DNA from: a candidate division FCPU426 bacterium | Lineage (GTDB): Bacteria > Oederibacteriota > PGYV01 > Palsa-1178 | DNA: 64,000 nucleotides | Direction: 5' to 3' | Assembly: GCA_963840035.1 (NCBI GenBank) | Contig: CAWIXE010000002.1 | Location: 96,001 to 160,000 of the forward strand | Shown: positions 8,999 to 36,038 of the stretch, piece by piece | Layout of the letters: the number at the start of each line of letters is the position of its first letter | How positions within the stretch are numbered: position 1 is the first letter of the stretch | The notes under the pieces: generated by a model | The model's input: the letters and a program-made list of their open reading frames with translations, nothing else | Databases searched by the model: none | What the model was told of the DNA's origin: nothing | Position numbers and translations under genes: made by a program

Positions 8999-9430
8999 AG
9001 CCGCCGCTTGCATATGCCATGAGCTCTATAATATGCTCATGACATATACATATCGAATGGCTGCGGCTCAAGGCCGGTTTTGTTTTCGTAGTCGCAGGCC
9101 TACGCTCCACCGGCCTGCGCCTAGATTAGGAATTGAATTACGCAAACGGTAGATATTCAAGACTACCGCGTACGCACCCCGATGGAGCGTAGAGGGTGCG
9201 ACTACACAAACGATAAAGCGAAGGCTGCAACGTTTGAGCCGCAGCAAGCAGCGGCTCTACAAGAACGGTAAAGGATTCGTTTTCGTAGTCGCAGGCCTAT
9301 GCCCCACCGGCCTGCGTCTGGATGAGGAATTGAACACGCAAACGATAGAGCCAGGTCCTGCCCTGAGACGGGCACGGGTCCCGTCTCTGCGGGTTTGATT
9401 TTCTGTAGAGACGCCAACTGTGGGCGTCTC
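8995..9430. repeat. Composite REP cluster: outer GTAGAGCCGC pair (8995-9260) enclosing an inner GTAGTCGCA pair (9088-9205), plus further REPs
   Basis: gtagtcgcaggcctacgctccaccggcctgcg ... cgcaccccgatggagcgtagagggtgcgactac, then gagccgcagcaagcagcggctctac. Half element at 9285. GTAGAGAC-type hairpins at 9356-9430. Confidence 0.85.
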
Positions 9431-18757: not shown

Positions 18758-18763
18758 TTTTTT

Positions 18764-18872
18764 GTAGTCGCAGGCCTACGATCCACCGGCCTGCGCCTAG
18801 ATTAGGTATTGAAGCACGCCAACGGTAGACGCCAATATTCGCACCCCGATGAGACGTAGAGTGTGCGACTAC
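18764..18872. repeat. Paired GTAG REP element (REPIN-like), empty copy
   Basis: gtagtcgcaggcctacgatccaccggcctgcgcctag...cgcaccccgatgagacgtagagtgtgcgactac, with terminal inverted GTAGTCGCA/TGCGACTAC. Confidence 0.88.
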
Positions 18873-18910
18873 GGGAACAATATCAAACAACTAGCGCACG
18901 CCAAGATTTA

Positions 18911-19527
18911 GTAGTCGCAGGCCTACGATCCATCGGCCTGCGCCTAGCCAAGGAATTGAAGCACGCCAACGGTAGATAACAACGCGCAGAATGGAATATG
19001 TTTATAGGGGACAAAAAAATGAAAACTACAAATACTTGTCCGGATTGTGGGGCTGAGATGTATTCGGACACTGTCTGCAAAAAGTGTAATTCCCGTATTA
19101 AAAATCATGAAGGTAGCGACGCTTTTAATTTTGAAGATATGGAAAAAAATATTGAAAAGCTTGCGGCTGAAAAACGTAATAATGAAAACATTGCCGTTTC
19201 GGGATCTTTTATAAATGAAAAAGAAGTAGATGCGCGTGTTGTATTGTTAAAGGCGTTATCAACGTCATTTGGAGTTTTTATTATTTTTTCTGTGGTTGTT
19301 ACAATGTTGTTTTTATATTTTGCTAATTTAAGGCCTGGAATCAAGGATTACTTTATGCGCGATCAGTTAGCTATTGGCGGTAGCTTTGTTGTTTCGCTGA
19401 TAGATTATTCAGTGATAGCGATTGCGACCTGGAGCGTAGCAGCTATTAGCAGACAAGCATATATAAGGACTGACTGGAAGCAAGAGCCAACGCACGCACC
19501 CCGATGAGGCATAGAGGGTGCGGCTAC
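18911..19527. mobile_element. Paired GTAG REP element enclosing a passenger gene
   Basis: Left half 18911-18988 and right half 19495-19527 match the empty copies. The ORF lies between them. Confidence 0.65.
19019..19507 (+). CDS. Hypothetical membrane protein with N-terminal CxxC-CxxC zinc-ribbon-like motif
   Basis: 'CPDCG...CKKC', two hydrophobic segments, visibly AT-richer than its neighbours. The last codons run into the REP. Confidence 0.6.
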   Translation: MKTTNTCPDCGAEMYSDTVCKKCNSRIKNHEGSDAFNFEDMEKNIEKLAAEKRNNENIAVSGSFINEKEVDARVVLLKALSTSFGVFIIFSVVVTMLFLYFANLRPGIKDYFMRDQLAIGGSFVVSLIDYSVIAIATWSVAAISRQAYIRTDWKQEPTHAPR

Positions 19528-19574
19528 GAAAGTACAAGGAATGAAATACAACGCAAAACAAATAGAGGTGTTTT

Positions 19575-20063
19575 GTGGAAAAGAAACACAGGCTTGATGA
19601 ATCTGTTTATATAGGCAAACTGCGCGCAACTTTTACGGTTTGCGTTGAAGACAGGCAGCCGCTGTTTAAAGATAAGGCCGTCGTAAACGTCATGCTGCAA
19701 ATCCTGAAACAAATCTTTGAAAAATATCATTTGCTTAACTGGATTTATACTTTCATGCCGGACCATCTGCATCTGATATTTGAAGGCGTCAAAGATAATT
19801 CAAACCTGCTGAAGGCTATGCATATGTTTAAACAGAAAGCTGGCTATTGGTTGAAGATAAATAAGCCCGGATTTAAACTCCAAAAAGATTTTTATGACCG
19901 CGTTCACCGGCAGGATGTAGTACTGGTTTTACAGATGCTTTATATCGCGGAAAACCCAGTAAGGTCCGGTTTGGTGAAAGAGTGGCAGGAATTTGAAAAT
20001 ACAGGGTCGTTAAGTTTTGATTTAAACGTTGAGATGCAGTCAGCGGATGTTTTAAAGCCGTGA
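19575..20063 (+). CDS. REP-associated tyrosine transposase (RAYT; Y1 HUH nuclease)
   Basis: 'TFTVC', HUH 'MPDHLHL', 'QKDFYDR', catalytic Tyr in 'YIAENPVRSGLV'. Flanked on both sides by GTAG REPs in opposite orientation. Confidence 0.9.
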   Translation: MEKKHRLDESVYIGKLRATFTVCVEDRQPLFKDKAVVNVMLQILKQIFEKYHLLNWIYTFMPDHLHLIFEGVKDNSNLLKAMHMFKQKAGYWLKINKPGFKLQKDFYDRVHRQDVVLVLQMLYIAENPVRSGLVKEWQEFENTGSLSFDLNVEMQSADVLKP

Positions 20064-20068
20064 TTTTC

Positions 20069-20184
20069 GTAGTCGCAGGCCTACGATCCACCGGCCTGCG
20101 CCTAGATAAGGAATTGAAGCACGCCACCGATAGAACATAAAATCCAACTGGCGCACCCCGATGAGGCGTAGAGGGTGCGACTAC
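20069..20184. repeat. Paired GTAG REP element, empty copy downstream of the RAYT
   Basis: gtagtcgcaggcctacgatccaccggcctgcg ... gcgcaccccgatgaggcgtagagggtgcgactac. Confidence 0.88.
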
Positions 20185-34571: not shown

Positions 34572-34609
34572 AAATACTCTGAAGGATGGAAATATATACA
34601 GGAGGTTTT

Positions 34610-34936
34610 ATGAAACAAAACATCATCGTAACAACAGCCTTTGAAATCCCCGACATGAAGGTCGTAGAACACAAAGGCCTCGTCCGCGGTATCATTGTCA
34701 GGACCCCAACCATTATCCAGGGCGTCCTCGGCGGCCTAAAATCCATCATAGGCGGAAACATAGGAGCCTACACGGAAATGTGCGAGCAGGCCAGGACCCA
34801 GGCATACGACGCACTGGTAGCCCACGCGCAGCAGCTGGGAGCCAACGCGGTCATAGGAGTGCGCTACGACGCATCAGAAGTGGCAGTAGGGGCGACGGAA
34901 GTGCTGTGTTATGGCACGGCGGTTGTGGTTAAGTAA
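34610..34936 (+). CDS. YbjQ/UPF0145 family protein
   Basis: 'GLVRGIIVR', 'LKSIIGG', 'EQAR..A', 'LGANAVIGVRYD', 'EVLCYGTAV'. Confidence 0.9.
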   Translation: MKQNIIVTTAFEIPDMKVVEHKGLVRGIIVRTPTIIQGVLGGLKSIIGGNIGAYTEMCEQARTQAYDALVAHAQQLGANAVIGVRYDASEVAVGATEVLCYGTAVVVK

Positions 34937-34951
34937 ATATACACGTTTTTT

Positions 34952-35738
34952 GTAGAGCCACCGCTTGCTGCGGCTCAGACGTTGGATTTCGTAGTCGCAG
35001 GCCTTCGTCTCACCGGCCTGCGCCTAGATAAGGGATTGAATAACGCAAACGAAAGACGGACCAGACCACGTATGACCAGTTACTAATCTATTAAAATGAT
35101 GGTTGTCGGGAGGTGGTTGTGTTTAAAAAAATTACTAAAATTATTGGCGTTGTGATGGTGTTCGCAATATTAATTGGGATATTAGGCTGTTTCTTTGCGG
35201 AAAAAACGATACCTGGATTTGTTTCAAATATCGTGTGCGAAAAGATGTATGGCGACACTACTATCCCGCACAATTTGTTTGTTGATTACTTTGATATTTA
35301 TAATTATCAGATTATTAAGAGTGGAAAACTATCAAAGCAATCAGATTGTTATACAAAATATCTTAAAGAAACAGAAAGAATTAAATATTTTTCTGAAGAT
35401 AAAATCAAAGTAATCGACAATTATTACAAGGCTTGGAATGATTTAACCGATAACCCAAAAATAAACGGCCTTTTGAAGTGCTACAGGTTATCGATTTTAA
35501 AAAAAGAAATTGAAAGGTATTACGGCATTTAATTAAGTCGGATTAAGCGTGGTATTTATCTTGTTATAATATTCTATATGCTTTGGCCGCGAATTTTATT
35601 TCATGCAACTCCACGTTTTAATATATCAATCAATGACGCAAACGAAAGACGGACTAGACCATGCTTGCGCACCCCGATGAAGCGTAGAGGGTGCGACTAC
35701 CAATGTCAAAGGCGAGACACAGCAAGCTGTGTCTCTAC
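34952..35738. mobile_element. Nested composite REP element carrying a passenger gene
   Basis: Outer REPs at 34952-34976 and 35714-35738. Inner element halves at 34991 and ending 35700. Direct repeat at 35043-35070 and 35636-35663. Confidence 0.7.
35113..35532 (+). CDS. AT-rich hypothetical membrane-anchored protein (passenger)
   Basis: 139-aa ORF, GGAGG near the start, N-terminal TM. Exact start uncertain. Confidence 0.55.
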   Translation: MVVFKKITKIIGVVMVFAILIGILGCFFAEKTIPGFVSNIVCEKMYGDTTIPHNLFVDYFDIYNYQIIKSGKLSKQSDCYTKYLKETERIKYFSEDKIKVIDNYYKAWNDLTDNPKINGLLKCYRLSILKKEIERYYGI

Positions 35739-35766: not shown

Positions 35767-35795
35767 TTGACAACCACCCGTATTTTTGTTATATT
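35767..35795 (+). promoter_or_regulatory. Sigma70 promoter upstream of the leader peptide
   Basis: TTGACA-17 bp-TATATT. Confidence 0.7.
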
Positions 35796-35820
35796 CTAAT
35801 CACAAAGGAGGACGTGCACA

Positions 35821-35934
35821 ATGGCTAATAATTACAGCAATTCTATCGCAATCAACACAGCCATTAATACGTCTGTCCTTCTTCCGGTAGTAGTCCTTTT
35901 ACTTACCGGGCTTCTGGTAGTCGTACTCGCCTAA
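35821..35934 (+). CDS. Putative branched-chain amino acid attenuator leader peptide (37 aa)
   Basis: AGGAGG RBS. MANNYSNSIAINTAINTSVLLPVVVLLLTGLLVVVLA has 18 of 37 residues I/L/V. Alternative stems follow. Upstream of the ilv-leu cluster. Confidence 0.65.
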   Translation: MANNYSNSIAINTAINTSVLLPVVVLLLTGLLVVVLA

Positions 35935-36038
35935 GGCGAGCAACGGCGCAGAAACCCGGGAACCTCAAAAAACCCCCAAGTTTCAAGCGCCGTGATAGGT
36001 CTGTTTACAGTTGCTATATTATATAGTCCCATCCACTT

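Follow-up and report, generated by a model that had tools for sequence, protein, structure and literature searches.

An AT-rich gene flanked by a duplicated spacer within a GTAG-type REP doublet of a candidate division FCPU426 bacterium

REP doublets, RAYT enzymes, and insertion with long target duplication

The gene cassettes of integrons are single small AT-rich ORFs with a ribosome-binding site and short flanks. For insertion with long target duplication, Nobusato 2000 is reportedly a reference. In the accessible part of a later account, this class of insertion is described by a target that is unique in the genome and by long repeats of variable length, and it is attributed to DNA breaks (Furuta, Abe and Kobayashi 2010, PMC2853133). 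According to the available portion of its description, TnpA-REP of E. coli cleaves either strand of the linkers at C^T and can join strands in vitro; a duplication of units through synthesis primed at a nick has been proposed for it, as has the sequestering of genes (PMC3333891). One relative also cuts at CA (PMC8266576, in the text at hand), and insertion of DNA into REPINs or doublets has already been suggested in the accessible sections of PMC3116915. In vivo footprints of RAYT enzymes are scarce; trapped genes with duplicated linkers would be such footprints. Among titles and abstracts, none was found that describes a REP doublet whose linker is duplicated around a gene. Figure S7 of PMC3333891, on sequestered genes, may bear on novelty.

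The locus described here lies in a window of 64,000 nucleotides (assembly GCA_963840035.1, contig CAWIXE010000002.1, positions 96,001 to 160,000 of the forward strand). Coordinates refer to the window unless a contig or locus is named.

The nested element, its duplicated spacer, and the passenger gene

In this RAYT-rich genome, the element belongs to the REP doublets of the GTAG type and consists of two unlike GTAG-headed hairpins around a variable spacer of approximately 50 bases. The left REP (L; 34991–35022, forward strand) starts with GTAG at 34991, followed by a GC-rich hairpin of 8–9 bp, and the right REP (R; 35668–35700, reverse strand) is inverted with its GTAG at 35700. Outside this doublet, a GTAG REP of a second family, "B" (34952–34975, forward strand), heads a nested composite of the order B-L-spacer-R-B, which is closed by an outer inverted GTAG REP (35714–35738, reverse strand) upstream of a promoter-like site at 35767. 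The intact copies at 9088 and 51177 are likewise flanked on both sides by B-type REPs. Genome-wide, 48 matches to L and 41 to R were detected, many of them intergenic copies. Of 9635 GTAG sites, 665 stand at the head of a hairpin, compared with 0.2%–0.3% for seven control tetramers; besides these at least 665 GTAG hairpins, the genome contains 10 Y1_Tnp matches, and repeats account for 23% of its intergenic DNA. The L motif is abundant in two of the 98 other genomes of the phylum, G006 and G002. A search for the motif returned 12 metagenome, eight genome, and no viral loci; no split element was present in four of the metagenome loci (the other eight and all eight genome loci are DNA already covered and were left out). 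The element itself also occurs in tandem, with nine units at C1:663117–664403, whose spacers agree at 28.8 of 30 positions, and two units at L052. Tandem arrays of REP doublets of different families were seen in this genome (G000) at C1:663117–664403, C1:196462–197749, and C2:907798–908755. Other palindromic repeats are inserted in the loops of L or R hairpins at C1:109419, C1:195303, and C2:253374 of G000 and in several copies of G006 and G002.

At the focal site, the spacer begins with an unduplicated part (35023–35038, forward strand), followed by the first copy of a direct repeat (35039–35070, forward strand), which ends a few bases before the expected start of the R hairpin. A foreign-looking insert (35071–35631, forward strand) separates it from the second copy (35632–35663, forward strand), after which the element ends normally. 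The sequence-only reading had reported that two 28-bp cores (35043–35070 and 35636–35663) agree at 26 positions and surround an AT-rich ORF. This was confirmed, with a period of 593, and the match could be extended four bases to the left (from 35039 and 35632), giving an identity of 28/30 over 35039–35068 and of 29/32 over 35039–35070. In a local alignment, the two copies scored 26, and none of 2000 shuffles gave a score above 14. Across the 3.46 Mb of the genome, they are each other's only close match, the next-best match having six mismatches to the left and eight to the right copy. Copies of the L/R family more than 50 kb apart share on average 15.4 of 30 positions in the same stretch of the spacer, and 28 was reached by one of 671 pairs. 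The 26-base core had no match in metagenome or viral contigs. Judged by these comparisons, the duplicated stretch is the private spacer of this copy of the element, and the repeat arose on the spot.

Removal of one repeat together with the insert leaves an element of 117 bp, as had been anticipated from the sequence, and many intact family copies measure 116–119 bp (others 102–168 bp). Since overlapping halves of any two near-identical copies also rebuild a normal element, this figure alone cannot separate an insertion from two half-lost elements. The rebuilt element folds as two separate hairpins and not as one long hairpin (z −1.7 and −2.3). No Rfam family matched the focal site, and the target is not a tRNA. 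No empty or circular junction was found in four low-share DNA runs, none of which spans the site or covers it well; no RNA run was listed. The one joint observed, from 35051 to 35666, is not the empty allele, because its spacer is that of a different copy, located at 9088.

The insert (561–565 bp, GC 0.31) comprises one ORF and is devoid of an attC-like hairpin and of convincing terminal inverted repeats. The passenger gene (35119–35532, forward strand) encodes 137 amino acids from the GTG at 35119, the start given in the database, or 139 from the GTG at 35113, with GGAGG at approximately 35109. With a GC of 0.30 and a GC3 of 0.33 (ORF 35113–35532), it ranks within the bottom 25 of 2740 crudely called genes (lowest 1%), and it is present as a single copy in the genome. 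One full-length homolog with 37% identity (P0002, on a contig of 1032 bases) was found among 1.84 billion representatives searched, wherefore the passenger is likely a real gene. A search with this homolog as the query gave no match in the 98 other genomes of the phylum, and no homologs of the passenger were detected in plasmids, phages, or viral contigs. The structure model, built from two sequences, is all-helical (mean pLDDT 87.8) and had no fold match at E 0.001; an Atlas score of 0.76 is a lead only. No Pfam or NCBIfam family matched over the cut-off, PADLOC gave no match, and no recombinase or defence match exceeded its cut-off. The protein has a hydrophobic N-terminal helix and is therefore likely a small membrane-anchored protein.

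Downstream of the composite, positions 35767–35990 contain the promoter-like site and a short leader, in which runs of GTA/GTC and a hairpin are present. The leader is 73%–84% conserved in relatives, where it lies upstream of methyltransferase and ilv genes; it had no Rfam match and presumably resembles an amino-acid attenuator. On the other side, a YbjQ-family gene (34586–34936) is located between REP clusters, whereas in four relatives it precedes a gene which we take to be SUI1-like. No REP scar was seen at its old site (C1, approximately 25700). In G006, which belongs to another genus, an uninterrupted element of 127 bp lies upstream of a leader homologous to the focal downstream leader. 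It follows a different gene and its spacer shows only family-level similarity to the focal one, so that it is not a proven empty allele. None of the other eight relatives read at this position has an uninterrupted element upstream of the leader. In G004 and G011, genes that are located further upstream in the window directly precede the leader, indicating that the site gains genes often.

Origin of the duplicated spacer

A RAYT-like Y1 HUH transposase gene is present in the window (19575–20063, forward strand), with L/R-family elements on both sides. HLH and a C-terminal Tyr are visible in its product, which matched PF01797 with 33 bits (cut-off 23) and NF047646 with 65.6 bits, under the RAYT cut-off of 80; several homologs are named RayT by their source. 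The product is likely the cognate enzyme of the L/R family. Next to it, a second split element (18911–19527, forward strand) consists of L with a full spacer, an ORF (18998–19507, GC 0.38), and a short spacer piece with R. None of the 98 other genomes of the phylum yielded this ORF. The spacer overlap at this element covers 6–9 bases only and is not significant (P 0.165). The region 18759–20184 has the layout of a REPtron, in which the RAYT-like gene lies between L/R elements and the low-GC ORF inside one of them; the stop codon of this ORF is part of the R hairpin.

In relatives, 69 REP heads, 160 overlapping loci (811 kb), and 60 loci of G002 and G006 (1.08 Mb) were scanned for split elements, which yielded one clear case (L044) and two loci that fit a local duplication instead (L041 and L049). 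At L044 (1063–1729), in G006, a DUF433 gene and a short downstream ORF of 42 codons lie between two 112-base copies of REP-composite DNA that differ at a single position. The second of them begins midway through the L hairpin, removal of the duplication restores an intact composite, and the inverted partner of the inner B REP follows the second copy only. The duplication thus differs in length among the three loci, with 6–9 bases at 18911, 30 at the focal site, and 112 at L044. The right end at L044 is a C^T step, whereas a fit of the focal ends to C^A requires a shift by a few bases. As CT or CA already make up 13% of the spacer steps, these dinucleotides prove little.

Local copying of REPs in the same orientation is a stronger general signal in this genome than the focal insertion, as single-strand, cis-acting models would predict. 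The best match of 41 of 220 REP clusters lies within 10 kb, compared with 3.5 expected (reciprocal pairs count twice), and the orientation is the same in 40/41 of these cases, in 16/23 at 10–150 kb, and in 101/179 of the distant best matches. Local copies span one or several genes without any gene insertion (e.g., C3:328390–347389 and C1:211070–214128). Some REP clusters even bracket genes that we take to be core cell-division genes, so flanking repeats are no proof of gene insertion. Unpaired halves are frequent: 12 of 40 L lack R (15 were flagged and three removed by eye) and eight of 30 R lack L, with the two passenger loci included. Clean deletions of the R hairpin were seen at L041:1130, L049:~1470, and C1:694469 of G000, where the TAC of the CTAC end directly adjoins the spacer; cutting by RAYT has been described at CTAC. 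Long duplications are also found at a non-REP target, namely three copies of a 100-base gene end with terminator at C1:106567–109207. These three copies bracket two units of one gene each, with REPs in or beside the units.

Copying of this kind could account for the focal arrangement if the whole element had been placed on both sides of the gene, by tandem duplication or a short hop, and the inner halves had later been deleted, an origin that we consider rather unlikely. Tandem arrays of the element do exist (nine and two units, see above), and close neighbours (0.4–6 kb apart) are more similar than distant copies, with a mean of 21.6/30, 26 being reached in four of 14 cases and 28 in one. The loss of halves is common and occurs beside genes at L041 and L049. 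A weak possible remnant of R lies at 35080, where 7/10 bases match the R end and its flank (P 0.04–0.11; 0.11 by shuffle, and four of 95 other insert windows). Three events would be needed, however, within approximately 7% divergence, and the deletions would have to erase, without a trace, both inner REPs of the outer family as well as L and 16 bases. No B-type REP was found inside the insert (best 14/24 bases), and the sequence preceding the right copy retains no sign of an L head (P 0.92 and P 0.99). L041 differs in this respect: the whole composite stands on both sides of the gene and only the R hairpin of the first copy is gone, its flank and outer REP being spared, whereas the focal site has neither; at L049, an R hairpin was lost beside a gene in the same manner. 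Loss of both halves is estimated at 10/38 × 6/28, approximately 0.06 per neighbouring pair (two passenger loci left out), and there are approximately six to seven such pairs. Two tandem elements that each lost a half were the case which the sequence-only reading had itself set against its proposal; it draws some weight from the half losses at other loci and loses weight at the focal site, which shows no inner remnant of an L head or an outer REP. That reading had also proposed that a circular cassette entered through a crossover within the spacer, and took the locus as the best evidence for an element open to gene cassettes. The 28-bp stretch would then be an attachment site brought by the cassette. 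A Campbell-type product would have this geometry, passengers occur in two of approximately 40 copies here and in one in G006, and a single-strand BIME circle is part of the model published in PMC3333891, in its accessible text. We nevertheless regard a cassette as very unlikely. An incoming site should differ from the resident spacer as much as family members do (approximately 15/30), yet the copies match at 28/30, which disfavours a cassette bringing its own site, and the core had no match in metagenome or viral contigs. Nor is the site fixed, given the 30 bases here, 112 at L044, and 6–9 at 18911.

A suitable fold or enzyme was not found either. The predicted 593-bp circle is without a GTAG hairpin, and the folding of its junction does not exceed that of shuffled sequences (z +0.7 and +2.1). 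No attC-like hairpin follows the passenger stop codon; on either strand, shuffled sequences fold better than the 3' flank. In the genome, which is 98% complete, no integron integrase exceeded the cut-off (best TIGR02249 match 89.7 bits, cut-off 265) and Cas1, IS110, and DDE_Tnp_1 had no match. With a private repeat, no hairpin at the circle junction, and none of these enzymes, most support for a dedicated circular cassette is gone. To say that the element accepts gene cassettes was also an overstatement, since a long repeat of the spacer is seen only in the focal one of 39 inward-facing REP pairs with 250–5000 bases between them (a different palindromic repeat accounts for the next score, 18.5) and the number of passengers is within chance. 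In a crude model, chance landing of 44–108 low-GC gene runs gave 0.24–1.26 expected in the family, compared with one to two seen (P 0.12–0.40), and flanking direct repeats show no clear excess at low-GC genes (6/76 versus 51/1331, P 0.12). The focal element likely has no fixed attachment site and is not part of a reusable cassette system. Descent of the insert from a non-autonomous IS or MITE, now decayed, whose transposase makes long target duplications, is highly improbable. Neither terminal inverted repeats next to the duplication nor a matching transposase or Cas1, as expected of an IS, a MITE or a casposon, were found. Three copies of one IS in G000 (C2:940436, C1:160095, and C2:585580) have target duplications of 15–16 bp and are presumably IS30-like, and the insert ends show a weak inverted match of 15/20 bases (P 0.05). 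This match, however, is AT-rich and unevenly spaced from the two repeats, the insert ends do not resemble those of the IS, and the passenger gene is single-copy.

The arrangement probably, though by no means certainly, goes back to a single insertion event with target duplication during the repair of a nick or break in the spacer. Insertion with duplication, the other option of the sequence-only reading, is the best-supported one. It accords with the private repeat, the complementary halves, the outer REPs enclosing the whole, and the foreign-looking gene. Support comes from L044 as a second case, with its duplication of 112 bases in a relative, and from the B REPs, which lie outside both halves as at intact composites and are absent from the insert. 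In such an event, a nick or break would have occurred in the spacer of the REP doublet, and the AT-rich gene would have been joined during repair, with duplication of the target spacer; two to three substitutions between the repeat copies would have accumulated since. The likeliest source of the break would be the RAYT enzyme, whose involvement at the focal site, given an insertion, appears about evenly balanced against hairpin-stalled replication or ordinary break repair. The length and position of the duplication would vary from case to case. A more far-reaching model, in which REP doublets and RAYT act as gene-capture sites, with a nick in the linker priming the copying and foreign single-stranded DNA being joined between the old and the new copy so that duplications of differing length remain, seems unlikely to us at present. 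If it were true, it would give RAYTs a role in gene acquisition in vivo and make their cut sites readable from footprints. The present evidence is that of one or two chance landings of a known type of insertion in a repeat-rich genome.

Comparison with known systems

The integron cassette resembles the focal insert in its content, one small AT-rich ORF that has a ribosome-binding site, and in its short flanks. It differs in that the insert has no attC-like hairpin after the stop codon and that a duplication of 30 bases is not made by cassette integration. Prochlorosin genes, beside which TnpA-REP genes have been described (bioRxiv 10.1101/2020.03.09.984088), are comparable insofar as a RAYT was proposed as a driver of gene content. 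In the accessible text, however, the link is to transposase genes and not to a split REP doublet, and an added note of the authors withdraws the causal claim.

The host element conforms to the GTAG REP dimers, BIMEs, and REPINs with RAYT in the available portions of PMC3733652, PMC3116915, PMC3333891, PMC8266576, and PMC3337134, which share with it the GTAG followed by a hairpin, two unlike inverted REPs, a variable linker, tandem arrays, and a Y1 HUH gene flanked by the family. A foreign gene inside the linker, accompanied by duplication of the linker, is not described in these portions. The spacers of Pseudomonas REPINs pair into one long hairpin, as far as the accessible descriptions go, whereas the focal spacer does not, which brings the element closer to a pair of the BIME-1 type.

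With the insertions treated in the accessible part of PMC2853133, the locus shares direct repeats of genome-unique sequence around a gene whose GC deviates, the variable length of these repeats, DNA breakage as the proposed cause, an insert of less than 20 kb without an integrase or other mobility gene, and a target that is not a tRNA. The inserts described there are restriction-modification genes, the repeats exceed 30 bp, and the empty site comes from the same species. In the focal case, by contrast, a small orphan gene was inserted, the repeat of 28–32 bp lies at the threshold of >30 bp (that at L044 has 112 bp), the target is a REP spacer, and the only candidate for an empty element comes from another genus. 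The footprint works like that of an insertion with long target duplication, without restriction-modification genes.
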